A stretch of 64,000 nucleotides of DNA from contig JAUYMS010000034.1 of the NCBI GenBank assembly GCA_030698625.1, positions 2,835-66,834 of the forward strand, given 5' to 3'. The position numbers were made by a program, and so were the translations under genes. Source of the DNA: Candidatus Omnitrophota bacterium (GTDB taxonomy: Bacteria > Omnitrophota > Omnitrophia > Omnitrophales > Aquincolibacteriaceae). Shown here piece by piece: positions 27,030 through 64,000 of the stretch (position 1 is its first letter; the number at the start of each line of letters is the position of its first letter). Under the pieces are notes generated by a model that saw nothing but the letters and a program-made list of their open reading frames with translations, was not told where the DNA came from and ran no database searches.

Positions 27030-27419
27030 CTAGGCAGCTTGTTTGCTGCTGAGGTAGTCGCGCACAATCGCGGCAATCTCGAACGGATTGACGGGCTTGA
27101 TGAAGTATCGCTCGCATCCCGCGTCAGATCCGTCTTGGAGGTCCTGCTCCATGCTCTTGGCAGTTAGAAAGAAGATGGGGATCTTACTCGTAGTTCGATC
27201 TTTACGAATTTTTTTGGCTGCCTCGAAACCCGTCATTACAGGCATCACGACATCCATGAGTATAAGATCGGGCTGCTTCAACTTGGCCAGACGAATGCCT
27301 TCCAGGCCATTGACGGCAACATCCAGCTCAATATTCTCGCTCTCAAAGGCCAACTGAGTGATATCGATGAGGTCAGCTTCATCCTCAACCAACAGGATAT
27401 GAGGCTTGGTCGAGCTCAT
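27030..27419 (-). CDS. Single-domain response regulator (CheY-like receiver)
   Basis: HILLVEDEADLIDI...PDLILMDVVMPVMTGFE...IPIFFLTAK: phospho-acceptor Asp and conserved Lys contexts. 4-nt ATGA overlap with the upstream kinase gene. Confidence 0.8.
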   Translation of the reverse strand: MSSTKPHILLVEDEADLIDITQLAFESENIELDVAVNGLEGIRLAKLKQPDLILMDVVMPVMTGFEAAKKIRKDRTTSKIPIFFLTAKSMEQDLQDGSDAGCERYFIKPVNPFEIAAIVRDYLSSKQAA

Positions 27420-29361: not shown

Positions 29362-29607
29362 TTAAGATCCTCTTTGACGCTCTGAGGAACGCTCTGAGGG
29401 ACTTTCCTGCGATCTCACGACATTGATGGCATGCTCGCCTTTCGGGCCCGCCTCAATCTCAAACTCAACAGGTTCACCTTCGTTGAGCGTCTTGAAGCCA
29501 TCACCGCCAATAGCGCTGAAGTGCACGAAGACGTCGCTTCCACTCTCTGGGGTTATAAAGCCGTACCCCTTTTTGTTGTTAAACCACTTCACTGTTCCTT
29601 TTGGCAT
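29362..29607 (-). CDS. cspA: Cold-shock protein (CspA family) with short acidic/Ser-rich C-terminal tail
   Basis: [33 protein letters not shown]...[14 protein letters not shown] has RNP1 (KGYGFI) and RNP2 (VFVHF) motifs. Confidence 0.9.
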
Positions 29608-29813: not shown

Positions 29814-32800
29814 TTAGGCTGCGGCAGCGACTTCGATGTCGCGGAGAATATCCTTGCTAAGTTTGGCTGCAAACGCATCAATGTCGGTAAGAATTCCGCC
29901 GAAGCCGCCCTCGCTTTTGGACTTCCCGGTGGAGAAGAAGTAGTACTTATCGACTTGCTCCACGCCGATCATCGCAACGGCCAGGGCAATTTCGATATCG
30001 CGCCGCGCCTTGCGGTAGAGACGACGCCCGAGGCTGCTATCGGGGTTGACCCCTCCGGGCACACCCTTCACGAGCAGACCCTTCCAACGCTTCTCGACGA
30101 CACCTAAGGCTACCTGAGCGAAAAGGGCACTGCCCACATCGATATCAGGCGATACAAGGGTCGTGGAATTGCCCGCCTCCGCCGACGGTAAAGCGGAGTA
30201 GCCTGCCAGTTGCGCCGCTGTAACCGCGACGCGCACGGCATCGCCATAGAAGGCCGCCGCCTCCGTCCATATGGCGCCCTGGAACTCAGCGCCGGTGAGG
30301 AAGACATCGAAGTTCTCGTCGGCATTCACAACCTGGGTAACAGGCGCGTTGATGAGCATTTTCTGCAGAGGCGTAAGGCCGCCGACTTCAGCTTGAACCC
30401 CTAGAATCGCAAGCAGTATTCCCTCAAAATCATCCGCCGCCACGCCTTTCTTAATCTCATCAAGCGTGAGGCCCGTAGCCATCCGGAGCAAGAACTCAAC
30501 CTTCAGTTTAAGACCGGCATAACGCTCAGCTTGCGCCACCGACAGGTCTTCGGAGCGCAGTTCGGAGCGCAGAATTCCCTCGAGATCACTCAACGTCTGA
30601 GTGTACGCAAAGATTTCATGCAGGACATCGTAGACTTTAGTGCCTTGAGGCAGTTGACCACTCAGCTGGGCATAGATGGAGTCGATCCTCTCGGTAATAT
30701 GATAGTGTTCAAACTCGTGATTGGCCCACAGACGCAGGTCGCGAACTGCATCGTCTTCCGGCACACTCAGGAGCTTGCGCGCATTCAAGCCCATGATGGA
30801 TTGCATCCGGTCTTCCAGCTGCTTCTTCTGGAAGAAGGCAACCGCGTCGGCATTCAGTCCCGTAAATTCTTCCAGGGAGATACGGACGCCGTTAGTCCCC
30901 TGCACCAGATCCCTCAGTTCGCTATGATCCGGGAAGGTGCGGTCGAAGATTCGCTGCAAGGCTTCCACCTGCTCGACTTCCAGCTTCTTGCGCAGGTCAC
31001 GGCTCAGCGCCTGTTCGATATTGGTCGATGTATCTTCTATATAACGCAGTTCCGAGCGCTGGCTAAGCTCATTGACACGCGAGAGCAGGCGGCCGGCCTC
31101 GATTAGGACACCGACGTGTTTGAGGTCCTTAGCGTACTTGGGGTCACTTTGCACGGCACGCAACCTCTCGCGGACTTCCTTGAGATCCTTCAACGCAGCG
31201 GCCCTCTGAAAGTCACTAATCTCGTCACCTGAAAGAATCTCATCGATACCGTCCAGACGTTTCGCAAGGCCTTCAAAGAAACGGTCGAGACGTACGTCTG
31301 TGAGCGTCTTCTTACCCGAAAGCAAATTCGTGATTGTGAGATTCAGGCCTTTAGCAATCGCCAGGAACTCGTCCCGGTCTGTCGCGAATTTCGCAACCCT
31401 TCTGTCTTCAGCCACGGCCTCTATTACCGGCGTAAGGGATTTAGCGTCTTCGATAAGAAGGGCCAATTCGGCCTGAATATCGCCCAGTCGGCCGACCGTG
31501 ATCCTCTCACTTGCAAAGATCTCGTCATAATAATGACCGAGCAGTTCCTTAACCACGCGGAAGGTCAGGTTCGCAGCCGCCTCTTGGTCGCGCTTCGCTT
31601 GCGGCAGGCTTTCTGCGATAATACCCGCACGGTTCATGATGGCCTTGAGGTTGGTAATGCGTTCACGCAAGGCATCCGCCGAAAGACTACGAAGCTCCAA
31701 GTCTGTCCGCTCGAACAGCTCCTTGAATTTCCCGACCTCCACATTCAGCTCGCGAAGCTTATCGAGCGTCAACTTCTCTTCTTCGACGATCAGCGCCAGC
31801 ACATCGCGATGGGCCTGGAGGGCGCGCTCAATCGGCGCGGCGAAGTCCGCGTATTCCTTGTCCTGTTCGTTGGTCTCAGCCGTCGGGACATAACGGCTCT
31901 GGACATCACGCACCGACGCAAGATACTCATCCGTGCGTGCGAGAGCCTCAGCCGGGTCAAAATCCTCGGCCGGTGCTTTCCCTTTGCGGCCGTAAATGCT
32001 GTCACCCAGCTGCCCGGTGTCGATGTGCAATTGACGCAGGATACCGGCATCGAGACCCCTTTGCCTGTAAGCCAACGCACTCTCCGGGGTTTCGGTTGCC
32101 GCAAGAGTGTCTTTCAGAAAAGCCTGAGCATTCTGCAGTTTTGTTTGGTCAGCCGGGCTGAGCAGTTCCCTATTTTCCTCGATCAGTGCGCGGTCAACTT
32201 GCTGCTTAAAATTATTCAGCTCTTCGCGGAACACGGCGAGTTCCTCAGGCGTTTCGAAAGAGCGGAAATTGCCTTCGCTGTCATAACTCTCTTTTTGCAA
32301 GTCTTCAAAAGCCTTATTGAGATTGGCCGCCTCCGCTGTGGCCGCAGCCTTGCGCTTCTCCAGGTCGTAGTAAACGCGGTAGTCCGCGGGCGAGTCGAGC
32401 TGCGTCGCGAGGTTCGTGGCCTTTGACTGTGCCTGTTTGATGCCGGCTGTCAGTTTTTTGCGTTCCGCATCGGCTATGGCCGTAGGAACCTCACCCGATA
32501 ATTTATCGAGTTCCGTATTGAGACCGAGAAGCTGCGCCAAAAGTATCGGCAATTCATCATCCTGAACGGGTTCGGAGGCAAGTAATTTACTCTTGAGTTT
32601 TTCCAGTTCGGAGCCGAGCCCGGCAACACGGTCGCTGATCCGCTTTTTGGTCCGTTCGGCGTCGAGCGTTTCTTCGCTCTTGAGCGTCGCCAGAAGTCCA
32701 TCGATCGTCTTAGCGAGAGCCACGGCCTTTTTGTTGCCTTCCTCGCCGAGAACGTCTTTGTATTCAGCAGCAATCCTATCGCGAGTTGCCTTCAGGGCCT

Positions 32801-35800
32801 CCACAGAGCGCTTCAGCGTTGTATAGGCCTCCGTATCAATAGACTCCTCACCGGTCAACTGCGCGGCGAGCTTGTCGATTTTACTCTGAATACTGTTCAG
32901 TGCCGTCCGGCCGCGTTCACTCTTCGGGACAAAGTCGATCACGGCGAAGTCGCTCGATTCCGTAAGGGCCGCCGGTAATTTCAATCCCGACTTTTTGAGA
33001 CCGACGACCAGGAACTTGCGGCCATCGCTCTTGCGTTGGATGACATCAAAGGCAAAATCAGCGTCTGTGCCGGTCAGGAGATCGAGGACGTCTTCGGTAT
33101 CCGAGAGCTCGATAATTTGCAAGCTGCCGTCACCGACGATCACGCCTTTTTTGCGGGCGTTCTTCTTAACCATGGCTTCGGCCTCGTTAATTTTCTTTTC
33201 AGCCAGATCGAGGTCTTTGGTTCCGAGTCTCTCGACAAGCGCCTTATGTTCTTCCTCGAGGAATGCCTGCCGATCATCCGGTGCGACACTCTGCGCACGT
33301 TTCTGAATATCCTTCGGCACCCGGCCCTGCTCAAAGCTGCGCAGGTCATTCAGGGTTTTACGCTTTACGTCGAGCTCTTTCTTCGCTTCCTTATATTCGC
33401 TGTCAAACTCACGTGTGGCTGTCAGCAACTCGCTCAAAGAGACGGCTTTGTCCGCACCGAAGCCCGCCAGGAATTTCCGGCGCACTTTGTCATTTTCAAA
33501 TGACCCTTCTATGAGAGAGTCGAACACAATCTGCCCGATCCCTTCCGCCGTGAGTTTGCTATCCACACGCAGCTCCGAACGCACCGTACCGGGCAAGAAT
33601 TCGGCCAGGAGAGAAGGATCGACGCCGCCGTCGCGCAGGCGGTCCACAAGTGTCCTCAGGAGACGCGCGCGCTCGTCGCGCTTGCCGTTACTGTTCAAGT
33701 TGAAGTCAACAGGAACTGCGTTGATCTGCTCGATCTCGGCCTGAATCGCTTTCTTCTGCGCCTTGCGTGTACGGTTGCGCAGACGGAAGCCCGTCACACT
33801 AAAGCCGGCGATCTTATTGTCAAGCCTCTCAAAACTCTTTTTGACATTGCTCGCCGTGGCGTCGTCGACGATCCTGCCCTGGGTTATGTTGCGCACAATA
33901 GCATTGAGCCATTCGCCCTGTGTAGAACGATGCGTCAGTGTCGATGCTTCATCGGTAGAATGCTCCCGCCCTCCGTCGCGTGCCGCATCGCCGCCGCCGT
34001 CACCGAAGTTAAAGGAAATGATGTCCGGATTGTGTGTGCGCACGTGATAGAAGTCACCGTACTCGTCAGTCACAACACGCTCCGAATAACCTTCTCCCAC
34101 TTTTTCCACGCCGCGGAAAACATGGGCCTGGTCGACACCGAGCTTATTGCCTTCCTCATTGACCAATTTGCCGAGTCCGGCAAATTCCGTCTTGTCAATC
34201 GTCTCACCTTTAGCATCATCGGGATGAAAGATTTCGGTGTGTATTCCGGGGTCCTTATCGCCGAAAAAGTCTTTGCCGCCCTTCTGCTCACGGCTGCCGC
34301 CTTTACGGAAGAAGCCCTTATGGCCCGCTTGTGAGTCCGCGGTAACGTAAACGACCTGGCGCTTCTCATCACGGAAAAATTCCGGATCTGCAATCTTGGA
34401 ACCGAGCCCAATTTCTTCACCCACGGTAAAGACCAGACGGAACTCCCCGCGCTCCTCACCGGCAACAGTATCGAAGGCATCGAGGGCCAGCCCGACACCT
34501 GAGCGGTTATCGGCACCAAGTGCCGTTGTCCCGTCGGTGCGAACGACTCCGTCCTTGCCGAGGATTGTCGTCAGCGGACCTTCGCGGATTTCCGGCCGGA
34601 CATCCATATGGCCGCCAACCACCGTAACGGCATCCCTTTCATGACCCTCGGTGGCTTTAAAGGTGATATATAGGATACCGTTGGCATCGACCTTAACTTC
34701 ATAATCTTGCAGACGGTCCGCACGGCGGCGGACTTTGGCGGCATCTTCGGCCTTACCTTCGCCCTCCAGCCGGACAGCCTCAGCTTCAAGACGGGTCGTC
34801 TCACTAATGATCGTATCAAGGACCATGTCCTGGATCGCAATCGAGACTTCCGGCTCGTGAAGTTGATACTGGCGCCTGACCTCATCGCTGGCTCCCGCAG
34901 GCGGCGTTGCCCGCGGCGTGCGCCCGATACTCAAAAGATGATGGTATCGCTCCAGGCTGCGACGCTCACGATCGCGGTCAAACGTTTTACCCGGATGACG
35001 CTTCTTGAAGTCTTCTTCCACCTTGTCGATTGCCGTTTCCAGATTCGCGCCGAAATCGCGGCTGCTGCGTTCGGCATTACGGCGGGCCAGCAACGCGGAG
35101 CGCGATTCGTCATTCAGTTCGGCAACAAATTCACTGCCCGGCCGCGTCGGATCGAAACCTCGCAGGATCGTCTCGAGGTCCTGACGGCTATTCTCATAAG
35201 TCTCGTCCTGAACCGTGTACATGAAGCTGAACACGTTTTCGAGCAGCATGCGGATGCCCTCCGGCAGCGCGCGGCGGTCAAACTCATCATCGATGTCGAG
35301 GTCGAGCAAGGACACGAGTTTCTTGCGAATGGCGTCGTATTTCTTGCGCAGCTTGTCGACCGACTTCAGTTGACCGGGATACTTATCGTCAGTCAGTGAA
35401 TAGAAGATGTCCTCATCCTCATAGACATCATCAATAAGATGCGGCAGCTCCCGTATCGCCTGATCCTCGAGCGTGCCGAGACTGCTCTTTACCGCGCGCA
35501 CGGTATCGCCGCTTAACATACCCAGGAGGCCGTCAATCAAGTTATCCAGCGTGTCGGATTTCTGAACGGCCGCGGTGAAACGGCGGAAGAACTCATCGCG
35601 CGCGGCATCATCCAGGCCCGCACGGGTCTGCAGCGTGAACAGCAGGTCGGCGATGGTCTCGAGCTTGCCGAAGAGCGCCTGGACTTCAGGCTTTTTCGGA
35701 TCCAGTTTGAACTGGTTCACGTAGTTACGAAGACCGTCGATGATCGTACGGCGATAATGGCGCGCGAGTTCCTTTTCGTCGAGGTTGCCGTCGCTGCGGT

Positions 35801-59800: not shown

Positions 59801-62800
59801 GATGAGCCAGCGCAAACTGCCGGGCGGCTTCATTCTCCGCTTCATCCCGAGTCATCCCCTGCTCACGCTGCAACTTTGCCGGCAGGATACGGCGGAATGT
59901 AATTTCTTCGACTATCGGCACAATGAAACCGTTGACAACCAGATTTGCCGCCTTCGTGAGTGTTAAAACGTCGAGGATAGTGCCGACAACCTTCCCGGAA
60001 GTACCGAAGATCCCACCAAGCAAGTTTGCGAAGAAACTGCCGAAGCCGCCGACTGATGTGGCGGCGCGTCTTTCGGTCTCGGCCTGTTCGGCTTGGCCTG
60101 TGCGGTCGCGTTTCAAGGGTTCAATTTGGAATTCATCGAGGAGCGTTTGTGCGGCTACCTGGCCGAGAGAGCGGCCGAGACTGGCAAGAAGGATGTCGCT
60201 TCTGCCGGCCGCATCTAAATTCGGCAGGACTTCTTCAATTAAGGCGTTCACTTCGGGGGGTGCACGAGCCGCCTCGCTGCCCAGCACCCCTTGAGAAAGT
60301 GCGACACCGAGTAATTCCGCCAATCGCGCGGCGCGGTCGTTGCTGAGCTCCGCAAGAAAGGCTCGGACGAGTGCGGCCTTGCGGGTCTGCCCTTGACGCT
60401 CCAGGGACTGCGCCAGCACCGCAAGGACTTGCTCCAGGACCAGCCCGTTCAACTGCCGGCCGGCCAGCCTGTTCATATTAATGAGATTCGTAATAGCGTT
60501 GACGAACAGCTCGGCGAATGTCGCTTCCGCGGCCGTATTTGCGGTGCCCGAAACTGAAATCGCCAGCAGCTGGCTCAGGAATAATGCCGCTGATTCTTCG
60601 GCAGACGTTGCGCCCACGAGGCCGCTTTCGCGAACAAAATCTGCAGAACGCAAGGCCGTCAGGAAATTGACCGCCCGCTTCACACGCTCGGCACGGTCCT
60701 CCGCCTCATGACCCGTGTTAACTTCGTTGAGCAAGCCGGCAAAGACGTTGAGCACAACCGGCACAATCTGGGCCGCGGCCGCGGCATCGGCTTCCAGTCC
60801 CAGGCTCTGGGTCAGCATCTGCTGCAACAATTCATTCCGAATGACCACATCACCGCCGCGGGCCGCCTCCACCAGGATGTTCGCAAACGCGCGAACCTCG
60901 GCGGCCGTCAGATTAGACACACCGGCGAGAAGCGCCGCCGCTCCTTCAGCCGATATCTGCACAAACTGAATGGATCTTCCGTCTTCCGAGGCAATGCCGA
61001 GGAAGTTTCCGTTCTGAGCCGCCCACAGCGACAAGGCAAAGTTACCGCCGAGGACAAGGTCGATGTCTACAGCAATGGCCGGGATAGCCGAGGCATCGAC
61101 TATCGCGCCGTCGGTCAGATTGGTGTTTCCGATATTAAAACCCACGATCTGGAATCCCGCACCCTGCACCATATTCCGCAGCGCCTCGGAGCCGCGCACA
61201 AAGTTTGCTTCGCCTGAGACGATGAGGATCGGCACCGTATTGCCGGTCAGAAGAAGCCCCGACAATGCGACCCCATTGGCGGTCAAGTTGCGGAACTGAT
61301 TGAGGAACTGCGGCGAGCTAAGGTCTTCCTGATTCAGCACGAAGATCTGCGTCTCGCCCGTGAGATTATTAGAAATTTCAGAGCCGGTGATCGAAACCGG
61401 CGTCAGGGTTCCGATGACGGCACCGGCAATCTGATTGGCAAGCGCGGCATCTGCTGCGCCCAGCTGCGCTAATGCACCGACAAGAGCGGTCACGACACCA
61501 GCAACGCGTACGGCGTGTGCATTGTTGGTGACGGCAAGATTGGCGAACTGCGCCCCAAAGCTTGCAACCGTCGCGGCCGAAACACCGCGCACCCCGCTGA
61601 TCGCCAACACACTTTCAGAGATTGTCAAGGCAAGAGCACTGCCGGCCGCGTCTGTTCCCAAGAGGGTAAGGATATCGGCTGCGAAGGTCGCGCCTGCCGC
61701 AGCGTTAGTCACGGCAACCGCTGTGACCGCATCGGCGATCGCTACTGCCTGCGCTGAGTTCGTCTCGTTCAGGGTCATAAGGGCCGCGGCAAACCCGGCC
61801 TGTGTGGCCGCGCTCGCCGACGTATTGCCGAGAGCTGTGACGGCACGGCCGATCGACTGCGCAACCGCAGGCTGCGTTTCGGTCAAATCAAGCAACCGCG
61901 TCGCAAGATTTACGAGAGTGTCACCGGCAACGTTAGCTGCGGAGAGACTCGCGATAGCACCGGCCGTTGCAGAAGCAAGGGCCGGATTGCTGACAGACAG
62001 ATTGCTGAGGCGCAGGGCAGCGCTTGTGACGCGCGCGGCATTATTACCAGAAGCGAGCGCAATCGCGTTTACACTTTGTGAGATGGTCACGGCAAGGGTG
62101 AAACCGGCGGCGTCTGTACCAAGAAGCCTGAGTATATTGGTTGTGAATGACGCACCGGTGGCTGCATCGGCCGTGACGACGGCCGTAACCGCATCGGCGA
62201 TCGAGCGAGCAACCGCAGGCTGCGTTTCGCTCAGGCTGAGCAGCTGAGTCGCTAAACTCAGGACAACGCCGCCGGAAACATTGGTCCCGGCCAGAGCCGT
62301 AATAGCGCCTGCCGCCGCCAACGCAAGGGTCGGATTGTTGACGGCCAGGCTGCCGAGGATCAGGGCGGCATTCGTGACAATCGTCGCATTGTTATTAGAA
62401 GCACTTGCAATCGCAGTCAGGCTTCGGACCAGCGTCCGGGCGGCGGCCGTCTGATTGCTCACAAGCATGGCCGAAACGGGGAGGGCAATGGCATTGATCG
62501 CGAAGGTATTGAAGCCGGTCGCCGCGGCAAGCACTGAGATGCCGTGCGCGATATCCGCTGCCGCGGCCGCGTCCGTCCCCGCGAGAGTGACGATCCCGTT
62601 GACAAAATTCGTGACGGTCGTGCCGTCCAGCGAGATGTTGGCCGTAGCAACCGCTGTCACCGCATTGGCAATCGTAACCGCCAGCTCTGAGCTCGTCGCG
62701 TTTAGATCATTCAGGGTCATGATGTCCACGGCAAACCCGGCCTGTGTGGCGGCGCTCGCCGACGTATTCCCGAGAGCTGTCACCGCACTGCCGATCGACT

Positions 62801-63965
62801 GCGCAACCGCAGGCTGCGTTTCGGTCAAATCAAGCAACCGCGTCGCAAAATTCAACACGACACTGCCGGGAGCGTTGGTTCGGGCCAGAGACGTAATCGC
62901 ACCTGCCGTCGCGGAAGCAAGAGTCGGGTTGTTGACAGTCAGACTGCCGAGGCGCAGTGCAGCACTCGTAACGAGCGCCACATCATTATTTGAAACAGCC
63001 GCGATTACGGTCAAGCTGCGCAGTAACGTCCGGGCCGCGTTCACCTGATTCGCTTGATTGGTTGCAATCGCGGCGGAGACAGGCACGACAACGGCATTGA
63101 TCGCTACAGCATTGTTGCCGGTTACCTCGGCAAGCACCGAGATACCGTGCGCAATGTCGACTGCTGCAGCCGAGTCCGTCTTGGCGAGATTGACAATCCC
63201 GCTGGTAAAATTCATGACGGCCGTGCCGTCTAGTCCGGCATCGGCGCTGGCCTGCGCCACAATGGTGATTGCCGCAATCAGAGCATTCTTTGTGCCGTTA
63301 CCCAAGTCAATTGCCGGTATTTCTAGCAGTTGCGTGATCACGGCAATCATGCTGCCGCCGGTGATTTGGAGACTGCTCAGGGCACTGAATGCCTGAGTCA
63401 GGCCGGCAGCGAAATCCAGGCCGCCGCGAGTCGTGATCAGAGTCGAGACCTTGTCTGCAAGCGAAGTGATGGCGCCAGGCTGAACCTGGATACTGGCAGC
63501 TGCCAAGAGGGCATTCGAAAAGAGATCACGCGCCTGCCCGTGGCTGTTCACATCGATTCTGCTGAGGCTGCTCTCTAGCGTTTCCTGCAGGCCGCCTATC
63601 AAGGCCTGAAGATCCTGCACTGTCGTCAGTCCCTGGATATTGCCGATGACTGCGGCCAAGGCCTGTCCGAAAAGAACACCATGCCCCTGCGTCGCCCGAA
63701 TAATCAAATCCATAACCTGGAGGGCATCGGCCGATAGCATGCCTCTCCCCATCATGCCGGTCATCGACATCGCAAGACTGGTTCCAAAAGAGACATCGAT
63801 CGTTTCCTGCACCACAGCCAGCTTATCAATCAGACTCTGAAGTGTCCTTGCCTCGGTACCGGGGGTCGCCGCGGCACCGACCGCCCGCGACAACTCGCTG
63901 GCAAAAACAATATCCTGTCGGCTGGAGATGCGGATCGACGTCAAGCGATCCACGATACTGCGCAC
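29814..63965 (-). CDS. Giant mosaic membrane protein, 11,383 aa in window. The 5' end may extend beyond the right window edge: 63965 is only the first in-window start codon (GTG), and the frame stays open to nt 64000
   Basis: Single uninterrupted ORF in the six-frame track (34,152 nt). In-frame codons upstream of 63965 (...ITNLFANDTPA-V-RSIVD) contain no stop before the window edge, and the N-terminus MRSIVDRL... has no signal peptide. Motif-defined parts are listed as separate features. Confidence 0.85.
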   Translation of the reverse strand: MRSIVDRLTSIRISSRQDIVFASELSRAVGAAATPGTEARTLQSLIDKLAVVQETIDVSFGTSLAMSMTGMMGRGMLSADALQVMDLIIRATQGHGVLFGQALAAVIGNIQGLTTVQDLQALIGGLQETLESSLSRIDVNSHGQARDLFSNALLAAASIQVQPGAITSLADKVSTLITTRGGLDFAAGLTQAFSALSSLQITGGSMIAVITQLLEIPAIDLGNGTKNALIAAITIVAQASADAGLDGTAVMNFTSGIVNLAKTDSAAAVDIAHGISVLAEVTGNNAVAINAVVVPVSAAIATNQANQVNAARTLLRSLTVIAAVSNNDVALVTSAALRLGSLTVNNPTLASATAGAITSLARTNAPGSVVLNFATRLLDLTETQPAVAQSIGSAVTALGNTSASAATQAGFAVDIMTLNDLNATSSELAVTIANAVTAVATANISLDGTTVTNFVNGIVTLAGTDAAAAADIAHGISVLAAATGFNTFAINAIALPVSAMLVSNQTAAARTLVRSLTAIASASNNNATIVTNAALILGSLAVNNPTLALAAAGAITALAGTNVSGGVVLSLATQLLSLSETQPAVARSIADAVTAVVTADAATGASFTTNILRLLGTDAAGFTLAVTISQSVNAIALASGNNAARVTSAALRLSNLSVSNPALASATAGAIASLSAANVAGDTLVNLATRLLDLTETQPAVAQSIGRAVTALGNTSASAATQAGFAAALMTLNETNSAQAVAIADAVTAVAVTNAAAGATFAADILTLLGTDAAGSALALTISESVLAISGVRGVSAATVASFGAQFANLAVTNNAHAVRVAGVVTALVGALAQLGAADAALANQIAGAVIGTLTPVSITGSEISNNLTGETQIFVLNQEDLSSPQFLNQFRNLTANGVALSGLLLTGNTVPILIVSGEANFVRGSEALRNMVQGAGFQIVGFNIGNTNLTDGAIVDASAIPAIAVDIDLVLGGNFALSLWAAQNGNFLGIASEDGRSIQFVQISAEGAAALLAGVSNLTAAEVRAFANILVEAARGGDVVIRNELLQQMLTQSLGLEADAAAAAQIVPVVLNVFAGLLNEVNTGHEAEDRAERVKRAVNFLTALRSADFVRESGLVGATSAEESAALFLSQLLAISVSGTANTAAEATFAELFVNAITNLINMNRLAGRQLNGLVLEQVLAVLAQSLERQGQTRKAALVRAFLAELSNDRAARLAELLGVALSQGVLGSEAARAPPEVNALIEEVLPNLDAAGRSDILLASLGRSLGQVAAQTLLDEFQIEPLKRDRTGQAEQAETERRAATSVGGFGSFFANLLGGIFGTSGKVVGTILDVLTLTKAANLVVNGFIVPIVEEITFRRILPAKLQREQGMTRDEAENEAARQFALAHPDVSRVDSAEFKYYENLAKDFAAAAGSSGILGLGAAIGKHIAHNVSVIIGTAAKGERLASTIELAFGRRLEAIAPGASRLPENGKRALVLLHEQFPGLRFAYITAVSFHAYGRVNGKDLIINWRDASLAKGLNVRDSYVEIGFTVGGSLTRISANASKDSIDFARKLMGAARGLGALGIDVLSTAQRGERVVDEAAGAEKETTGSRRANAYERLLTRAGFERVQDIEGKRDEITRLYRATAAEARPGFLSRLNALAQGVLNALAAIFGSAGRLIGTGLDFISSKPANLLVNGLVVPVAEELYFRVGRPAVLLVQNLRAGHGFRNALLRAFVQANREFAAAHKSADRRAAEEIVKSSGASAVTGAAAQTVSEIINERQLRHKEFAGRMARGVLRAGPLGLLAAIASHIANNLRVLTGRGREGEILQSTVAPSQSVTQRARAARSTVKSALELLGLPDSTAGTVTYTESNYVRAATLLRQAAAVFTELAEETADKAQADKYTIEAQAANRVAEAAVSYSLGRESVEGRGDSTFALAQVQLNHAAGEFDRHAARYAGFGALAVNARSLSQQAAELYLGEGEGAQGVLTEAQDTYAKIVRTVAQAVAYAAADDSGKAEERLRTAKAALKNLQQQLGRLVNRTSGRQKAAARKLSSDLASLSAVINNIERAEARIEWAEGNIDAGDFTRALPYAQGAEADLSDALTLATGLGQNYGQSKDRIQERLDHARTLRARAEAGLKQQEGDASRTASDSAKLLNEARDLEEQAEVKVAFALNFQSMSAVGAAAEFDIAARLFADAQSRYEELGHTADAARVDTAGREARDAASRLRSGAPTIDSAEQQELAARNEAQARAEGRGARVEAPAATGGVRIGNVVQNGAVTEAPEVSSGNLRLSNDEQLGQTYFPIEHIISRDGKYNTADKVFARLQDAGLGPKHKFTIGGKVVYSSDAFSVSKIDGRAAVVLYVVEADGTVNLRLAYKSNSQSEWRVASHLARDAENTEQVTWLGKGHHETQQTLRTGVSDYLDGLEVIDGTTLGDALDAALFIPLSVVDSMVKQAGYAATLADGGQYVAFNHSSNPSEQGVRQEGSAPDFENGILSDQTRYNDAFGGDVRTVLVQSKDGKLIYSFHHNAEYDISWQGHVELADGAITPYGVNDTVVLQAGISAPGIEYPEQAQGANGKPLGLNARFFEGDAAYLYNTGYTHAQPLVQAFRAAIVESASDQSAPAAPVTPGVPDMAAASAQAESLYGEADSHYTLAKDFEFRARRADSRDAGSYYAAAAAEYRLAIQSYRQAAQLYAALGMTKDAADATSRSASTQAELNALPVAEADKTVPVGRAAPAPPIVDEAEAVPPITDFAPPIASGADAFEAPDDGGVVVTPSDSGAVAPSGRTTPSRRARSGSGGSALLEMVKIVAGGIAGLALAALLLVFLDSQGIGQNTGLPESADQIRPFINQIYMVLAGFLALGATYFAFSKLRGFLSRMNLRAVAAVALVLAAGGAATFFLGGVVGAAVAAAVLIAIGLILSTTLQQASLTALTGLWGFIASITAWVKAGESETAQVVRAIAIALGLSAVVFGAAFALIPLTGGFLASLAYFGAFALAAALFGAAVYLIFQTVMATGRVIGRVAQFLWSHRVATGIVLASVAAILGIGLAPALALTVGLYAALGLAAIAGVAAVAAGINWLIRTYGSTITTAITSALSSAGTAVANFYAANAQRIRIAGAALAAGVGLLLGVNAVLGVSLVASAVILIGVTLAIAAVAALVIVAVAYRSEIGEALVFAAVAGAIIGVFTVIAGLSVAYNLLVGLKDLAVRYGPPVGRTLARYGAGAAIAIGIISVIVAALAYEGASNLTELAVKYRRQIGIGLTVVAAGVLAVSAVGLVVGGVINAIATIAIIATLATVIPYAIQIGSLLGLTGDRAGQIILALVLAPFVLAGIGTILGFTLGSVALGLALVFGTVAAVAVVTTLVTLAIVYRQQIAYAFSLAVLMGAAAVALSLLAAQATFDKAVDIAVNYGRRIAIALVTAAVAAAVITSFTLVLGGILPGLVAAVIVSALVAAVLYVSDLFLFTQTITIPAFGETRPEETVLRIPINLRTLLRGFASSLGTAIRNRVASISPTRMLLVMGAAAAVVTALVLGVPALVALAGLIISGAAYTLTGIVLSFLGVALLLGMLGLAGWAISEVIPEGMYRFLTGRVSDQLAVTAGIALALALVFGLTVGVVAAAVLTAIIVAVLITRALAPPVIAVSTRIAAVARALNQAFENGKKGLIEWLAKTIAPAERTGKTLSSRIVDGLRWVLGTLGTQYFNIASVLAIAAGIVMFALLLPVLVPLVGGSMAIAVMLTIALAITAGLVAGGAVILVEWIALRLLVMLFSVPDAIRNGIRSARQDLADRLNRLISADEEAAAEASEPSTAAEIHAAKARARAAKAREHLVKGELTQAARELRAAYRHAGEVLNYAPAAEAVSLHATVLAELGALRVELATAAAAARAAIPVTAADLFVDGADFLNDIDEAFKRDAAARAKAQRLVEAADELLAKIDQLAALQARPRTAQTYRQMQQLRAQILGLYAETQTLQAELGVTANQANQFRAKAAAALSRVDTLDINAVRNNVSKFQELCGGGGCGETSHELAAIRAELAVEDAIRAGDRDALRTALQQQKQAHDAMIEGIKGSSLSEAQKQELADERADRVGHTFENVARSGIEIDADFAADLEALDATCSSCAVNFANRAAKGAPRDEAVHAAIEQVLDVARNRRETAEKEARGPDTERIQKLSASEAAVLSDAEFGVWAASRTADTYTAEQVGTAAELAEALVLRGDLDAARAVVSKLDALHKVTDITELKKTLRGLLKGTRAKALSEANQEFNTKLDAVINAINEQINKAGTRDTTVLDGLNATQAQAEELARGADLDLTKGIRAQGKLRALIAGIRSALKDEKITLQEAQALLAQAYRLGIEVNARVATNAAARAEAEGATIEGAERQLRLAGESLDEARSYLEILLKGGNLTDAELAGLLALVQAARDNLSEGRARLEARRTGIDLDAAPVTDEAIRLTEDDAHAAEDLSRRGASELAVLRALRDQYEAAADSQREAAAKFRGIYSSYLRGEGATYAQVQAARTALEAAVRNTETARNQFQAKYDALTLSFDTTGESNAHLALAGEGVLQEFRSEYVAVTAGDRTLQDHFSELAVRTAALQESLYASLAEGRELSELERREAENVAAHAGAALREGDESSTAAAAAFPVLTADTRGAGTNVLEGVTPTVSGSSLVTIDPATGTIVLDRRALGRVTDVLSARRQLLAELEDVFVSLGIGTDAEGMKRRRLIVTAILLQNRTIARLAALGHAVPNHLRIEILENAPHPADFEFATGTIRLDASLFSGQFSAGELSLLLGFFTGHELHHQELTAAGVAAADQEAIVINGDVERFKTLTPDQRAKLLAALAKLDGFGFLVTLSGSYRLLRDTNRFLNRRDPATRGTTKRSESKAKELEERRQRLHADLTVNRGAEVDERDVRVTASGGFIAKGRLNGQDAVWFFNENGDEVGFRTFAGRDADGLQEIGYSNYGENAQKAFLDNTGHIAGHRVNGFGRELKPGTDLFYLDGKVVVYVEDARTGIAFRAEFDADGNVLSTDEIVLTLDRRADVLESEFDAANGVLARIRAQLIAVDEQVKETESLLAARGSRASKVRLRATLNTLREEAKELLKKAKEAEGEIQKAGKALHDHFVEFREHVIGPQLKAGDELRNPLRQRELQIQNDRLSRRIRSLEGLVGENAKLTPDNPRSIELTDLVEGVEAAKEADAFDSKYLRIEENKDDIASFTERERLLQLKGDDAETSARAKKAIYLEQLAEFDIKVKLLLKALKNGKLSAADFDALPEPLRNRLAGVRDILFDTARSEAEKEAALRTLLRELVEQGKRGLYDDKGSVFLSSQEQAAVDTLNAVHELFNASDSLKQLLAAQLKALGNEYHKAKEIQGREIPNDIVFKFLVAGTIAQRHFNAAFDYSVRGIQLVEGAALIQGILSGIPTAQGKTGTLLFRNILKAFVGPTVAHLLHTEQAVSDDLLNENQAVYAAFGIETYGLKKNKMGRDTFKQAFSNKEQKPRVLYISISDYQFAYLEDQSSAPNDKNLSDDSYILSVDEIDAIFMILMRYINAEGGRSLAKKNVENFGTLLGFAQELVEQDLGIRTESATERTHEKWARTARRLLSRTEPGTLFVLEDSEGTDGRLSLRTTDEFSKKSKELYKKFVQRVESRGGNVQDFFAQLGLDNSNLLLSEEERKQLQNPDKAFEMLLRRSLEILLARRAGKDFGFKVAEDAKGDKIDESGTPVYEVRVMSNEGVSTQRESNFGGTILEAAFQSLVFDNGGVLKVEAESKTSGENDSLVVFEMKTRRFEDGSMDLSGSSGTVLASVKSIPSGSRDQAFIQTEDKAFLKLAAAFKIIASPEDYLNFDTHIRRARFINETKFTTAAEVDRVIADLVADAQKNYRTISRLFFKSPEQAQQAYRKYVKSYIANVKAQAEATLRANQTKLGLTDAEITAMLAELENLLQELSSKWGDATAKPALNNAVRRFFSNLRSRVRTDFDLLTALHGLEDLSLSAGRIYLLDGSQSDYGRKEGKDGGLLRGVVFASNNVSRGTNFVPPFASFSQSVKSGDRDKSVERSLRELLRQAGYSANEQTEQLEKLHHLQRLLLQDALRENLNDKTATVKLSEVLAGYSEAERQKVLDFINGLRSSVGLPVTDELTRDDVMKLLDKFSAETGNAAVAKAQATSGDARTSLLEKLGLESSATPQEIEAAYRTHVAEFFDKFSVSYAYGELGYAVGASRNLFDFEQAVARSGRNEAPGRVGEIYVNEWDVNEIVALGFENLPGTKADAASFALFKKTLAQYFALQQKVEAARAKGRDTTGLERKLDVKRAKLEALLSQARRNTTEATADRILIDHLPGKVEFNARAKESQKFSQFEGEQKNGAVSTTEYLASKGEAAYQQYQNGNTRVQFSVPADKSGSDADASGSQVVQENGQNFDFTYKDGQITGLKVGGVNYQLTDGKTLEIGNERYTVKLNYSRMSVTLTSEKQALNEYVIAGDRQTNGDREIKGFFKSRVERLRLGRKVQGNAQLLQRRLGRFLRGLGYLQEAKRLEAFRGTPAQIQQEYKKVVAGLGSAEDSYFSHRAVTSAVTQLFSDYRTRAQNSGQAAALSWLNGKLRALGWQFAIGREGSLETEVTAENASEVEAKLKAFGYRLVDAARVDDARRYANAQRIDKLNRIRGERTKTTGTPLFTEEGRDHDVAARRAEAYRLRLLAEEAVSEREYIDNLGRALINGAYEHSLKLEEQSEQKRRNLEVRGIHNAESRLENEFVSRIREEISNDKTLSEEAKQTLLADILNQFIADQDTLTDHALKARRAAQVLIAVRESGVPLNVSLKSIIGSEAETAARSVLNSCSSCAVEFRSLGREGSYLGVQGLQAALALGAVRERTVADALDQLKKAHPGLAADVADATAPKDLSKVGRALNRFRGRTGVIGGIAVAGALVAAAVSFFLAPFGVLLVAGIVFGAGLVLSVLPTLSSRLGLNWLIRNTIGRIMDLVGLGSFRARIQEAGAAGFSFLRTLALTGGLAAAFGSLIVAGILFAQVILAGTVLGLLVGVTAGYLGFSALQNRIGKRGAIAVVLLLGLAVIGAGAGAAVLLGLPLIPAILAAIGFNAAALVGNRATKIVATQTVVKGGLGNVLEGNRQAQLKTPAGELKVIRNVQYNNTVESVREYEPIVIRIAEDERAERAAPAVESTETEAGAATSVHTAEDVVIVERTDAGATVTVDTENTSSESTSRALSNAILALRELDRSAVCGGAGDCSDRRITVVIRQPGKPRIRLELNEDERRALIQNPEALLNRVDSLSVGRITSGGINFYGLRERTEAGNDGDLVVRAVYGQTYEQMVAADPMLQQLEQGHTAAAIEVSAELKSLKTQIDVERGKLRWVKADDGGFAFVHVDTFAEIDESVYISSGVVIQAQAKIGRNVRLEANSVVRRGATIKDGDRERPTVIGKNSVVGEGVVVGRRVQIGRNVRLRNREINPDKKKDDKDKFKQRTTIIGDDVTIGDDTTINGSTVLADIGSGYLIEDSYINAEDIEGIDLTQGAGDILSGINTSRLSRRQKESLRPAATLTDAAESGIDTALGQSKAALDRLPAAQRTRLAGVINGIARVRAAASSGDVGATRDALAALNQEVSHAAFTDVPASVRANLRKTNLALRSERRVIYRGALGIRAESYGDFFGAWTSILPERIRVPDTKVARFFFILRMLLRRGAEKVLDSILPDEWTAWYGQNRTDDQIKTEELFEQSLRQERAALAVIVTEGTERGVLDAARLVELRNDAREQVRELRRAKRNETLLKIGKVGLGLGLLGFILFNIGAAVIAGGSLLAMIVVPTVIVVGALAITGIVLFFGTRIKAFFSAAVEKIKFFFTSRVEKTKERLDRIDKEGKITHVTPLRRTLEIGLAAGLLAGGFFLGGAVLVSVSMIVAAVLAALLLISQFRAVRNIETYLLGFARSPLFWLALAGIGALLVFGLPAIATGLGLGFSFPLIGWLVTAFAAVKGALGTAATFALGKTVVGVLGSSYVWYPLVGVGSLVGLYKALSGYYTRSTLFDAEGNAKPPFVGAKFYLSYFFKGILLGLVDRHAEAKWLRSRIAALADDEATSLWTRARIALAPENNPSKETIDKYFALVRDREALNRVKKDQSLQKSVQERYQEKAKDSIQALVRKKKYGPSVLGDYQKYSNFQQNFDYLDKLKENEKDKDKLVQIEQQKKQLEHQLEEWEKDLSCAPACIADFKKTYATQKQSVKFFGEEIFEDLKKAADPLVAFQMEVLTAYKDRLTQIGLADKNTDLNKKDVREKLLSKNPIHTTLGHKEFLELTRKHNLEVADALNLIQGGWHLDEAAEFEAGLAIDSGGTAFKRFNKEVKRFRESSSPEALEERRNSVGFGEVFNEEDFWRDARAYNAALEKIKGEIQIAALMDGGRDPVGLAHKIDKLFEGLSEKITQERKNLADKVKAGESGFRDDETLVSDIDGSMGMGEAIFDHLRLDEKASVAAVIKIGRAVAAIRGVIAEREQEGRGRPSLRDIKSILNKFGVNLDHASDAGFAGLALDPLLQGLFAGVHDGILANDISIDDAFAIARGERTAWTNKLNLISQHLLGEDLFGTGTPLSLENLKRLYEARLAIVEQDALRADEAARLREGLAAILFHEASKLQEDGEERIQKMRRHKDKEDRIPAEQERLKNEVLAKLDAVAAAFPGYGKRIIEFRKRHGIAYTKADLEHFKSEIIRDADAILGNPAAPDEFKDILRVLIDHIRDLPIEIEPAADTPAFVRGGKIFFADWVLDDLLEGRYSGLVSQPDKGLIGYVSQHLLHEVIEYELNDFSEGVHDSYLNPFQRSKNISNFSLRARQLRASGNYVKAERVERMGRIISRVIDEGTVHGRTVASDDPFKMFRDYYAEYVASNFLKFQSREKQDATVQFYRALAMTRGEYVYRDKAAFKERIVNEPLDQDPFTRFLSGDTNAWEAYEEYFSTNVAYRWIFEFEEALQKGQVEEAKRVLDEKKKKSDEQRAKTGEPSISDPTFHYFNNLLAQSRSGRLVGSALEISRSNFERNRDITYTGFALADRERYTVEDNAVDYETKFEEHRRRRRTGDHPNRVADSFNRIRGDVLALVHSDAPDYDRTKHDRVYDRIKHLVPPAHRYQIEQAKATAEQAGLLSATHPDGLDGIKKKVSELGIPEGTSGAERRRLELERRRFLAEDTYRALVYFALQKLIIVSEPDAAKARETLLEVRKAFQDQTNKDLVSRSYDTSAKETRDFLLTRQDPTEDIHFDYQHLESDLEGAELIDRDGILVLKLKEDKFKEFMKRNGKGDSSDGAAIRFGHRAGFGTLVIVPEKKDKTKFPEGLNLRDLAHELGHARSQYLWENRQKQFADLDELLVLSQFPVMRDPLILGQQGMLSEIHSFVHETNGWRNNPSDNDTIYRSDGNLDEKELARHYRRTIIDGLRNYVNQFKLDPKKPEVQALFGKLETIADLLFTLQTRAGLDDAARDEFFRRFTAAVQKSDTLDNLIDGLLGMLSGDTVRAVKSSLGTLEDQAIRELPHLIDDVYEDEDIFYSLTDDKYPGQLKSVDKLRKKYDAIRKKLVSLLDLDIDDEFDRRALPEGIRMLLENVFSFMYTVQDETYENSRQDLETILRGFDPTRPGSEFVAELNDESRSALLARRNAERSSRDFGANLETAIDKVEEDFKKRHPGKTFDRDRERRSLERYHHLLSIGRTPRATPPAGASDEVRRQYQLHEPEVSIAIQDMVLDTIISETTRLEAEAVRLEGEGKAEDAAKVRRRADRLQDYEVKVDANGILYITFKATEGHERDAVTVVGGHMDVRPEIREGPLTTILGKDGVVRTDGTTALGADNRSGVGLALDAFDTVAGEERGEFRLVFTVGEEIGLGSKIADPEFFRDEKRQVVYVTADSQAGHKGFFRKGGSREQKGGKDFFGDKDPGIHTEIFHPDDAKGETIDKTEFAGLGKLVNEEGNKLGVDQAHVFRGVEKVGEGYSERVVTDEYGDFYHVRTHNPDIISFNFGDGGGDAARDGGREHSTDEASTLTHRSTQGEWLNAIVRNITQGRIVDDATASNVKKSFERLDNKIAGFSVTGFRLRNRTRKAQKKAIQAEIEQINAVPVDFNLNSNGKRDERARLLRTLVDRLRDGGVDPSLLAEFLPGTVRSELRVDSKLTAEGIGQIVFDSLIEGSFENDKVRRKFLAGFGADKAVSLSELLTATREFDSEYKEAKKELDVKRKTLNDLRSFEQGRVPKDIQKRAQSVAPDDRQAFLEEEHKALVERLGTKDLDLAEKKINEAEAMVKKNARKKGVIVGDGSLQIIELSDTEDVLDLLTGTDADFAFDVIQRKSDGRKFLVVGLKKSGLKLPAALTESSDFAVIDFVPKSERGRTALNSIQSKIDKLAAQLTGEESIDTEAYTTLKRSVEALKATRDRIAAEYKDVLGEEGNKKAVALAKTIDGLLATLKSEETLDAERTKKRISDRVAGLGSELEKLKSKLLASEPVQDDELPILLAQLLGLNTELDKLSGEVPTAIADAERKKLTAGIKQAQSKATNLATQLDSPADYRVYYDLEKRKAAATAEAANLNKAFEDLQKESYDSEGNFRSFETPEELAVFREELNNFKQQVDRALIEENRELLSPADQTKLQNAQAFLKDTLAATETPESALAYRQRGLDAGILRQLHIDTGQLGDSIYGRKGKAPAEDFDPAEALARTDEYLASVRDVQSRYVPTAETNEQDKEYADFAAPIERALQAHRDVLALIVEEEKLTLDKLRELNVEVGKFKELFERTDLELRSLSADALRERITNLKAIMNRAGIIAESLPQAKRDQEAAANLTFRVVKELLGHYYDEIFASERITVGRLGDIQAELALLIEDAKSLTPVIEAVAEDRRVAKFATDRDEFLAIAKGLNLTITNLLSGKKTLTDVRLDRFFEGLAKRLDGIDEILSGDEISDFQRAAALKDLKEVRERLRAVQSDPKYAKDLKHVGVLIEAGRLLSRVNELSQRSELRYIEDTSTNIEQALSRDLRKKLEVEQVEALQRIFDRTFPDHSELRDLVQGTNGVRISLEEFTGLNADAVAFFQKKQLEDRMQSIMGLNARKLLSVPEDDAVRDLRLWANHEFEHYHITERIDSIYAQLSGQLPQGTKVYDVLHEIFAYTQTLSDLEGILRSELRSEDLSVAQAERYAGLKLKVEFLLRMATGLTLDEIKKGVAADDFEGILLAILGVQAEVGGLTPLQKMLINAPVTQVVNADENFDVFLTGAEFQGAIWTEAAAFYGDAVRVAVTAAQLAGYSALPSAEAGNSTTLVSPDIDVGSALFAQVALGVVEKRWKGLLVKGVPGGVNPDSSLGRRLYRKARRDIEIALAVAMIGVEQVDKYYFFSTGKSKSEGGFGGILTDIDAFAAKLSKDILRDIEVAAAA
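30705..30719 (-). other. HExxH motif 3 (HEFEH) about 300 aa from the C-terminus
   Basis: AVRDLRLWANHEFEHYHITERIDSIYAQL. Confidence 0.2.
33880..34700 (-). other. MH-clan (M42/M20/M28-type) co-catalytic zinc aminopeptidase-like domain
   Basis: ILYITFKATEGHERDAVTVVGGHMDV (His ligand, nt ~34597-34612) ... TTALGADNRSGVGLALDAF (bridging Asp in the G-A-D-N-R-x-G box) ... RLVFTVGEEIGLGS (Glu-Glu catalytic/ligand pair) ... YGDFYHVRTHNPD (C-terminal His). Order and spacing match M42/M20 peptidases (e.g. GxDDRxG / TVQEEVGLRGA). Confidence 0.55.
35994..36008 (-). other. HExxH motif 2 (HELGH) in metalloprotease-like context
   Basis: KFPEGLNLRDLAHELGHARSQYLWENRQKQFADLDELLVL: an Ala-His-Glu-Leu-Gly-His-Ala core with downstream Glu candidates for a third ligand. 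Confidence 0.35.
39930..40690 (-). other. Transmembrane cluster 3 (~8-10 predicted TM helices)
   Basis: LLKIGKVGLGLGLLGFILFNIGAAVIAGGSLLAMIVVPTVIVVGALAITGIVLFF ... LAAGLLAGGFFLGGAVLVSVSMIVAAVLAALLLISQF ... WLALAGIGALLVFGLPAIATGLGLGFSFPLIGWLVTAFAAV. Confidence 0.55.
41470..41870 (-). other. Left-handed beta-helix / hexapeptide-repeat (bactofilin- or acyltransferase-like) block
   Basis: VYISSGVVIQAQAKIGRNVRLEANSVVRRGATIKDGDRERPTVIGKNSVVGEGVVVGRRVQIGRNVRLRN...TTIIGDDVTIGDDTTINGSTVLADIGSGYLIEDSYI shows hexapeptide [LIV]-G-x-x-x-x periodicity across ~130 aa. Confidence 0.45.
42700..43290 (-). other. Transmembrane cluster 2 (~8 predicted TM helices)
   Basis: GVIGGIAVAGALVAAAVSFFLAPFGVLLVAGIVFGAGLVLSVL...AIAVVLLLGLAVIGAGAGAAVLLGLPLIPAILAAIGFNAAALVG. 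Confidence 0.55.
45700..47850 (-). other. SecA-like DEAD motor / SF2-helicase-like ATPase module
   Basis: Four blocks in canonical order: (1) IAQRHFNAAFDYSVRGIQLVEGAALIQGILSGIPTAQGKTGT (nt ~47731-47830) vs SecA [30 protein letters not shown]; (2) VAHLLHTEQAVSDDLLNENQAVYAAFGIETYGL vs SecA [31 protein letters not shown]; (3) SYILSVDEIDAIFMIL (nt ~47391-47402) vs SecA HYALVDEVDSILIDEA; (4) GGLLRGVVFASNNVSRGTNFV (nt ~45901-45918) vs SecA motif V TIATNMAGRGTDIVL. Alignment is by eye, from memory of the E. coli SecA sequence. Confidence 0.4.
49605..49619 (-). other. HExxH motif 1 (HELHH)
   Basis: GQFSAGELSLLLGFFTGHELHHQELTAAG. Motif-level only. Confidence 0.25.
52650..55600 (-). other. Polytopic transmembrane cluster 1 (~950 aa, roughly 25-30 predicted TM helices)
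   Basis: From ALLEMVKIVAGGIAGLALAALLLVF to WIALRLLVMLFSVPDAIRNG the translation is almost entirely A/G/L/V/I stretches of 18-25 residues separated by short polar loops. Confidence 0.6.
58550..58950 (-). other. CPBP-like intramembrane metalloprotease-like module 2 (tandem duplicate of module 1)
   Basis: EELYFR (nt 58890-58907) ... FAAAH ... HIANN in the same order. The flanking sequence is parallel to module 1 (SKPANLLVNGLVVPVAEELYFR vs TKAANLVVNGFIVPIVEEITFRR). Confidence 0.5.
59600..60000 (-). other. CPBP (CAAX protease / Abi, PF02517-like) intramembrane metalloprotease-like module 1
   Basis: All three CPBP motifs occur in canonical order and spacing: EEITFRR (EExxxR, nt 59889-59909), FALAH (FxxxH, 59802-59816), HIAHN (HxxxN, 59670-59684). 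They lie in hydrophobic context (GGFGSFFANLLGGIFG...NLVVNGFIVPIVEEITFRRILP ... SSGILGLGAAIGKHIAHNVSVIIGTAA). Confidence 0.5.
61400..63400 (-). repeat. Intragenic repeat array in the 5' part of gene B (Ala/Thr/Asn/Val-rich protein repeats)
   Basis: Nucleotide blocks 61790-61910 and 62725-62850 are ~90% identical (caaacccggcctgtgtggc.gcgctcgccgacgtatt.ccgagagctgt.ac.gcac.gccgatcgactgcgcaaccgcaggctgcgtttcggtcaaatcaagcaaccgcgtcgcaa), offset 932 bp. A more diverged related copy lies at ~62170-62300. Protein repeats: NNPTLASATAGAITSLARTN...ATRLLDLTETQPAVAQSIG.AVTALGNTSASAATQAGFA occurs 3 times. Confidence 0.75.
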
Positions 63966-64000
63966 AGCCGGGGTGTCATTGGCGAAAAGGTTCGTAATGA

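Follow-up and report, generated by a model that had tools for sequence, protein, structure and literature searches.

The 64,000-nucleotide stretch analysed here (the window; contig JAUYMS010000034.1 of the 'Candidatus Omnitrophota bacterium' assembly GCA_030698625.1, positions 2,835 to 66,834) carries on its minus strand an open reading frame (ORF) of more than 34 kb. Our data are most consistent with this ORF being a single real gene of an uncultured member of the Omnitrophota, encoding a large or giant protein that is anchored in the inner membrane and belongs to the subtype with a divergent SecA-type ATPase, a reading to which we assign a probability of roughly 0.6. The protein is a domain-sparse, SecA-bearing subtype of the giant proteins already described from this phylum of tiny groundwater bacteria, and not a new architecture. 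What is new, as judged by sequence comparison, is a small subfamily with a shared collinear core and a shared unannotated module that carries an HExxE motif.

The 34-kb ORF is genuine and appears to be coding throughout. The initial annotation of this DNA, made from the sequence without database searches, had reported one minus-strand frame open for 34,152 nt (at least 11,383 amino acids, aa) and still open at the window edge, and these figures were reproduced exactly: the frame runs without a stop codon from 63998 to 29817, and the first start candidate in the window, a GTG at 63965, gives 11,383 aa and 34,152 nt. The N-terminus lies beyond the edge of the window, and the length is therefore a lower bound of at least 11,394 codons. 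Base composition predicts about 410 stops in this frame and none is seen (log10 P of none, -181), while the other two minus-strand frames hold 369 and 578 stops. The G+C content at the three codon positions (GC1/GC2/GC3 of 0.65/0.44/0.65) is steady over all 1,000-codon blocks of the ORF and is like that of the neighbouring genes. Tandem Repeats Finder (TRF) returned only four short, low-scoring rows for the window and no substantial tandem repeat at the DNA level; no Rfam families or tRNAs were found within the 64 kb. Reassignment of a stop codon was considered and rejected: the giant frame is free of all three standard stops, and the neighbouring genes terminate normally.

Continuity of the ORF was assessed with a separate Logan assembly (run SRR13727534), in which a 29,687-bp contig is 100% identical to window positions 12412-33288 over the 20,877 bases compared, and in which the gene call holds the C-terminal 4,094 aa of the giant as far as the end of the contig, at window position 42098. 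The upstream 22 kb of the ORF has no second assembly and is supported instead by homologues. An artefact in which a chimera, a collapsed repeat or a sequencing error had joined ordinary genes could draw on that gap, on the metagenome-assembly origin of the contig and on the break of the independent assembly inside the ORF, but we regard it as very improbable in view of 34 kb without a stop, uniform coding statistics, the lack of a substantial TRF repeat and complete identity between the two assemblies across the 20.9 kb checked. In addition, the module order recurs in at least three other metagenomic contigs (46-56% GC), a fourth locus (GC 40%) has a SecA-like segment, and all of these are open; recurrence of the same order in independent samples is a strong argument against a chimera. 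Together, the identical Logan assembly and the collinear homologues largely remove the concern, raised in the initial annotation, that the ORF might be a chimera or a collapsed repeat. We note that the Logan assembly breaks at window positions 12412 and 42098, each within one of the two giant ORFs of the window and with no repeat evident at either; coverage or strain variation is a possible cause of both breaks.

The homologues come from an exhaustive HMMER search with residues 5151-6350 against 1.84 billion representative proteins, which gave seven matches, the five strongest of them 2,246-7,895 aa long, with two filling entire contigs. Seven is a lower bound, as the query's own protein is absent from the results, no match is longer than 7,895 aa, and very long proteins are probably missing from the libraries. 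For four of the seven, the source labels name two partial proteins of NC_groundwater metagenome-assembled genomes (MAGs; Omnitrophica/Omnitrophota and Aenigmarchaeota), one 'bacterium' MAG and one hypothetical protein from the Joint Genome Institute (JGI). Pattern scans with a three-sequence alignment led back to those two MAG contigs, as part of GTDB genomes, and to two metagenome contigs (51 kb and 2.17 Mb), and a scan of genome contigs with a single protein gave no match; the comparative search for giants elsewhere thus comes to seven representative proteins and two metagenome loci. A word-indexed search also missed the relatives P0008-P0012, which are present in the collection, even with their own segments in the query alignment. 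At four related loci, ranging from 40% to 56% GC and including one (L002) in an Omnitrophota MAG, the frame is open over every one of the 16.7-20.6 kb examined.

By BLASTP, relative P0009 is collinear with residues 1338-9127 of the giant, with matches in one CPBP-like unit, in the SecA module and the beta-helix block, beyond transmembrane (TM) cluster 3 and at residues 8468-9127. P0008 is collinear with residues 4965-8319 and L004 with residues 4698-9100, and L005 matches residues 5364-6332 only. These alignments define what appears to be a small subfamily with a collinear conserved core of about 4.4 thousand amino acids (kAA), at residues ~4700-9130. The N-terminal 1,300 aa, residues 1830-2800 and 3760-4700, and the C-terminal 2,300 aa had no counterpart in the relative fragments that were fetched. 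Two of the loci deserve comment. The whole of JACQNY010000098.1 (L003; 23,686 bp) is one fragment collinear with the giant (P0009) and sits in a 'Candidatus Aenigmatarchaeota archaeon' MAG; this label most likely reflects a binning error and not an archaeal homologue. L005 occupies positions 1,382,400-1,402,981 of Ga0315338_1000003, the 2.17-Mb metagenome contig of near-genome size, and is open over 20.6 kb at a GC content of 40%.

Modules within the giant were sought with Pfam on 1,000-aa tiles in two sets offset from each other, with NCBIfam on one set and with sequence searches of the PDB, and these profile searches recovered nearly all of the modules that had been proposed from the sequence. 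The SecA/SF2-like ATPase core of the initial annotation is borne out by a match to SecA_DEAD (PF07517; E 1.1e-11, residues 5323-5540) and by the alignment of a family profile to SecA in the PDB (E 5.5e-12 over SecA residues 28-217, with an extra 2-5-bit alignment on motif V); hhalign against canonical SecA gave a probability of 95.9% over residues 29-212. In the alignment with E. coli SecA, PTAQGKT of the giant pairs with GEGKT (Walker A) and VDEIDA with VDEVDS (Walker B), and further SecA-like motifs of the giant are GSSGT, SRGTNF/GRGxDY and ARSGRN. The family alignment A1 has YRGIQLxEGAAL, PTAQGKT, DE(I/M)D, SQRExxFGAT, GSSGT, GRGxDY and RSGR in common, which we read as the counterparts of Walker A and Walker B of SecA, of the end of its preprotein-binding region and of its motifs III, V and VI; Walker A and B were matched by alignment, motif V by weak profile alignment, and motifs III and VI by eye. 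With respect to canonical SecA (PDB 2ipc and 3bxz), therefore, nucleotide-binding domain 1 (NBD1) of the giant aligns, with the GKT of Walker A and the DExD of Walker B, and the family conserves sequence similar to motifs III, V and VI. In contrast, identity to canonical SecA is only ~11-25%, large insertions are present, neither scaffold nor wing nor C-terminal domains were detected in the giant, and its module sits in the middle of a chain of 11 kAA, between clusters of TM hairpins. A word-indexed protein search with the SecA module and the family alignments gave nothing useful beyond one canonical SecA (E 2.7e-4).

The ORF contains ~21 strongly hydrophobic stretches, mostly of 45-66 aa without any charged residue, which correspond to roughly 35-40 TM helices by hydropathy and charge. 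They lie in three clusters, as had been described earlier, whereas the count of ~45 helices given at that time was higher than ours. The largest of these, cluster 1, has ~15 uncharged hydrophobic stretches, nine of which are hairpins of 46-66 aa joined by short K/R-rich loops, for ~24 helices. Loops between the hydrophobic stretches are short and rich in lysine and arginine (KLRGFLSRMNLR, RVIGRVAQFLWSHR, RIR and RIGKR), and acidic character is confined to the loop that separates the two single-span segments with which cluster 1 opens. Given the positive-inside rule, such loops are the pattern to be expected of hairpins that enter and exit from the cytoplasmic side, and this suggests that the TM stretches are mostly helical hairpins entering and leaving on that side. 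It likewise suggests that the ATPase and the transferase of the acyl-CoA or acyl carrier protein (ACP) type sit at the membrane's cytoplasmic face, with the M20 module probably there as well.

The host of the giant is a member of the Omnitrophota: six proteins of flanking genes (RecN, LysM-amidase, histidine kinase, response regulator, CHASE2-SpoIIE and TPR) are identical to 'Candidatus Omnitrophota bacterium' proteins in the MDP3920454-465 range, which are encoded on a contig of 70,371 bp. ORFs longer than 20 kb occur in most classes of this phylum, with few annotated domains and poor conservation, and the V. archaeovorus protein, of 39,678 aa and with 42 TM helices, has been recounted as having peptides 3-fold up in attached cells (Seymour 2023, PMC10066038). 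West-Roberts 2023 (bioRxiv 10.1101/2023.11.21.568195) distinguished 'large' (>10,000 aa) from 'giant' (at least 30,000 aa) proteins, divided the giants into Archaeovorin and Dockerin types, and reported that every full-length giant has numerous TM regions, that most carry a divergent SecA DEAD domain without scaffold or wing, and that Omnitrophota genomes with SecA-bearing giants also encode SecA of normal length. In a catalogue of 916 proteins of at least 10 kAA, 94% have TM helices or a signal peptide, PF07517 defines one architecture cluster, and a 'TM-only, membrane-anchored cytoplasmic' class makes up 46% (Nielsen & Lui 2026, bioRxiv 10.64898/2026.06.07.730766). The protein described here shares with the large and giant SecA_DEAD proteins its phylum, a length above 10,000 aa, dozens of TM helices, a SecA DEAD domain without scaffold or wing, few recognisable domains, poor conservation and occurrence as contig-filling fragments, and we have placed it among them because phylum, size class, TM richness and SecA_DEAD all fit. 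Its N-terminus is off the window, on a contig of only 70,371 bp; the part in view, 11.4 kAA or more, qualifies as 'large' and is shorter than the 30 kAA of 'giant', a size that the whole protein may or may not reach. Its cytoplasm-facing pattern matches the 'TM-only' class of Nielsen & Lui 2026. The suggestion that an ATPase and protease domains fused to polytopic membrane bundles were an undescribed architecture thus did not hold, as TM-rich SecA_DEAD giants of Omnitrophota had already been published by all three groups. None of the Archaeovorin set (glycosyltransferase, HEAT, methyltransferase, glycosyl hydrolase, NUDIX) was found in Pfam or NCBIfam tiles of residues 1-11,394, and the Pfam tiles held no match to the Dockerin-type repeats PF00404 or PF18884 (TSP3). 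Conversely, CAAX, CPBP, hexapeptide, M42, acyltransferase, PF02517 and PF00132 are unmentioned in West-Roberts 2023 and in Nielsen & Lui 2026.

It is possible to envisage how such a protein would operate. The three hairpin clusters would stitch the polypeptide into the cytoplasmic membrane, and the soluble modules between them (ATPase, beta-helix transferase and M20 peptidase) would be held on the cytoplasmic face, a placement that follows from the short K/R-rich loops. Adjacent hairpins may tether the SecA-like motor, standing in for the undetected scaffold and wing of SecA, and the motor would spend ATP in threading or inserting polypeptide at the membrane. Its likeliest substrate would be segments of the giant itself, in line with the proposal of West-Roberts et al. 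Trimming of the giant or of its partners may be done by the protease-like sites, namely the two CPBP-like units, HExxH/HExxE and M20. The biological role is presumed to be interaction with a host or prey in an episymbiotic or predatory lifestyle. Giant proteins occupy a big share of the very small genomes of Omnitrophota and are thought to underlie that lifestyle. The gene described here leaves this overall picture unchanged and is useful as an experimental case, since its apparently intact SecA-like motor, with aligned Walker A and B and conserved sequences like motifs III, V and VI, is defined well enough for biochemical testing.

The protease-like modules bear on a different explanation, in which the ORF is translated once as a polyprotein and then cut by its own modules (CPBP-like, HExxH/HExxE and M20) into separate membrane and soluble proteins. 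The tandem CPBP intramembrane protease-like modules that had been noticed in the sequence are two units related to one another (phmmer E 4e-13), in both of which EExxxR, FxxxH and HxxxN occur in the canonical order and at about the canonical spacing. The Rce1-like family PF02517 scored 27.7 bits (cut-off 22.4) when both units lay in a tile and 15.1 bits with a single unit, and the best NCBIfam match, a weak one, was MrtJ. The corresponding unit of P0009 keeps both histidine motifs and the first glutamate, with a degenerate first motif (FETIWFQ). These are the same three motifs as in the CPBP/Rce1-like glutamate intramembrane proteases (PF02517; MrtJ); unlike classical CPBP proteins, the giant has polar and not transmembrane sequence between the motifs, and a single unit falls below the Pfam threshold. 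The earlier suggestion of a zinc peptidase like M42/M20 corresponds to an M20/PepT-like match (tripeptidase 3rza, E 2.4e-6; NCBIfam PepT-like, E 1.3e-9; residues ~9770-9875) in which the ligand motifs of 3rza find aligned partners in GHMD, GADN and GEE and in which D9888 and H10013 are, by eye only, candidates for the last ligands. Like peptidase T and other M20 dinuclear metallopeptidases (PDB 3rza and 1fno), the giant thus has aligned HxD, GAD and GEE metal-ligand or catalytic motifs, but just ~85-100 residues align, the lid/dimerisation region is not recognisable and scores are far below family cut-offs (16 bits for Pfam M20/M42 under gathering scores, GA, of 23-25; 37.5 bits for NCBIfam PepT-like, cut-off 274).

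The three HExxH sites reported earlier were all found again (3 observed, 0.11 expected; P = 0.0002 in 5,000 shuffles), and the first of them is kept as HEYAH in relative L004. The conserved HExxE module gave neither a Pfam nor a PDB sequence match, and its AlphaFold2 (AF2) model has a three-stranded sheet followed by a helix bearing the motif. For the long coiled coils proposed in the initial annotation, the hints are weak matches to helical-bundle families (ApoLp-III, HalX) and the long helices of a separate AF2 model, that of the SecA module. The beta-helix block that had been proposed consists of tandem hexapeptide repeats above the gathering score (Hexapep PF00132, E 1.4e-15, 56.7 bits against a GA of 27; PDB 4m9c, E 1.1e-6) and is nearest to LpxD/LpxA (NCBIfam) and to sugar N-acetyltransferases. 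Enrichment of HExxH, retention of one HExxH and one HExxE in relatives, two CPBP-like units with full motifs, the M20 ligand motifs and the possibility of self-cleavage by C39/S8 domains, raised for giants by West-Roberts 2023, could all be accommodated by a polyprotein. We nevertheless consider one quite unlikely, as none of the protease modules reaches the curated score of its family as a single unit, neither cleavage sites nor processed products are on record, and collinearity is equally expected of a single functional chain.

A second alternative is that the giant is a surface 'coat' or attachment protein, mostly exported, which attaches to the envelope of a host or prey cell and breaks it down and for which the TM helices are no more than an anchor, as was proposed for the 39,678-aa protein of V. 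archaeovorus and the 'Archaeovorins'. Such a role would be in keeping with the 3-fold rise of the peptides of the LiM giant in attached cells, with the predicted extracellular position of domains in relatives, with a LysM-amidase gene and a second, adhesin-like giant nearby, and with the N-terminal ~1,000 aa of the ORF, which could be extracytoplasmic; within these, the almost uncharged, Ala/Thr/Asn/Ser-rich internal repeats occur in 3-4 copies with the strongest offset at 314 aa. However, Pfam and NCBIfam scans of the ORF found no adhesin, lectin, dockerin, glycoside-hydrolase or transglycosylase domain, the enzymes that can be recognised depend on cofactors of the cytoplasm (ATP for the motor, acyl-CoA or ACP for the beta-helix transferase), and TM hairpins with K/R-rich loops bring the chain back to the same side. 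A surface protein of this kind seems unlikely to us. The hairpin and positive-loop pattern argues that this subtype is largely cytoplasm-facing, and so bears on whether such giants serve as weapons at the surface or as scaffolds tethered to the membrane inside the cell. Taken further, the subfamily might be no surface adhesin at all but a cytoplasm-facing, hairpin-anchored machine of a single polypeptide, in which the SecA-type motor, membrane bundles and protease and acyl-transfer modules would translocate, process and modify a substrate, either the giant itself or a partner such as the second, adhesin-like giant, by a route distinct from Sec, the type 1 secretion system (T1SS) and other such systems. 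This is a long shot; if true, it would be a self-contained system for export and processing.

Several observations count against a membrane-anchored, SecA-bearing giant as we read it. Any signal peptide or further TM helices in the N-terminus, off the window, are outside view, and the number and parity of the TM helices come from hydropathy and charge with no trained predictor, which leaves the sidedness of single segments uncertain. Statistical support for the ATPase covers NBD1 of SecA, with just the weak 2-5-bit motif-V alignment for NBD2, and Pfam at E <= 0.1 did not detect PPXD, Helicase_C/NBD2 or the scaffold and wing (PF07516, HSD, HWD). An AF2 model of the SecA module built from seven sequences was poor (predicted local distance difference test, pLDDT, 56.7), and its best Foldseek match, Thermus SecA, was weak (E 3.7e-3, template modelling score 0.2). 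The protease-like sites are called from motifs and sub-threshold profile scores. Most domains of giants have been predicted to be extracellular (West-Roberts 2023), and the databases searched appear to be without very long proteins, so that negatives concerning giants need care.

Table 1. Position of the giant ORF and of the modules recognised within it (window coordinates; residues numbered along the ORF)
Feature	Window position	Strand	Residues (aa)	Content or basis
Giant ORF	29814..63998	-		Open frame with 11,394 codons or more; terminated by TAA at 29814-29816
N-terminal repeats	61449..63311	-	~230-850	phmmer on tiles; no family match
CPBP-like unit 1	59613..60104	-	1299-1462	EEITFR, FALAH, HIAHN
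CPBP-like unit 2	58515..59099	-	1634-1828	EELYFR, FAAAH, HIANN
TM cluster 1	52725..55577	-	2808-3758	Hydropathy and charge
HExxH-1 small module	49509..49811	-	4794	HELHH
SecA-type DEAD ATPase module	45264..48041	-	~5320-6245	Tool alignment and motifs by eye
TM cluster 2	42705..43274	-	6909-7098	Three 46-50 aa hairpins, K/R-rich loops on flanks
Left-handed beta-helix (hexapeptide) acyltransferase-like block	41379..41879	-	~7374-7540	
TM cluster 3	40065..40658	-	7781-7978	Three 39-51 aa hydrophobic stretches, K/R-rich loops
Family-conserved HExxE module	36609..38051	-	~8650-9130	Invariant H8791-E-x-x-E
HExxH-2	35994..36008	-	9331	HELGH
M20/PepT-like metallopeptidase module	33879..34691	-	~9770-10040	
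HExxH-3	30705..30719	-	11094	HEFEH

Downstream of the giant, the genes on the minus strand include a second very long ORF (window 1-13851, at least 4,617 aa), which leaves the left edge of the window and lies ~16 kb from the giant. A hydrophobic anchor (MRHGEKIKVIAVITVITFLTT...) marks its N-terminus, and it has Laminin_G_3 in two tiles, weak matches to Big_13 and Glucodextran_B, matches to CBM60, FG-GAP and TcdB_toxin_midN, and a Peptidase_C39 domain ~3,600 aa in. It is an adhesin- or toxin-like surface giant, very unlike the 34-kb ORF; Laminin_G_3 has been mentioned for Omnitrophia giants (Seymour 2023). Between the two giants are two proteins with PEP-CTERM sorting signals (window 14000-14830 and 20541-21236, both minus), and no exosortase was seen within the window. 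MrtJ, the weak match of the CPBP-like unit, is a protease of a C-terminal sorting system, and a link to the PEP-CTERM proteins is possibly coincidence. Some 200 bp downstream of the stop codon of the giant is a cold-shock-domain gene (window 29362-29607, minus), followed by a response regulator (HTH_17 and receiver), a histidine kinase and a second receiver; a terminator scan found none between the giant and the cold-shock and regulator genes. A fused transaldolase-phosphoglucose isomerase gene lies at window 24073-27117 (minus) and would encode 1,014 aa from its first ATG, as against 948 aa in the Logan call. The longer version is absent from the protein collection, and the true start therefore probably lies further downstream.

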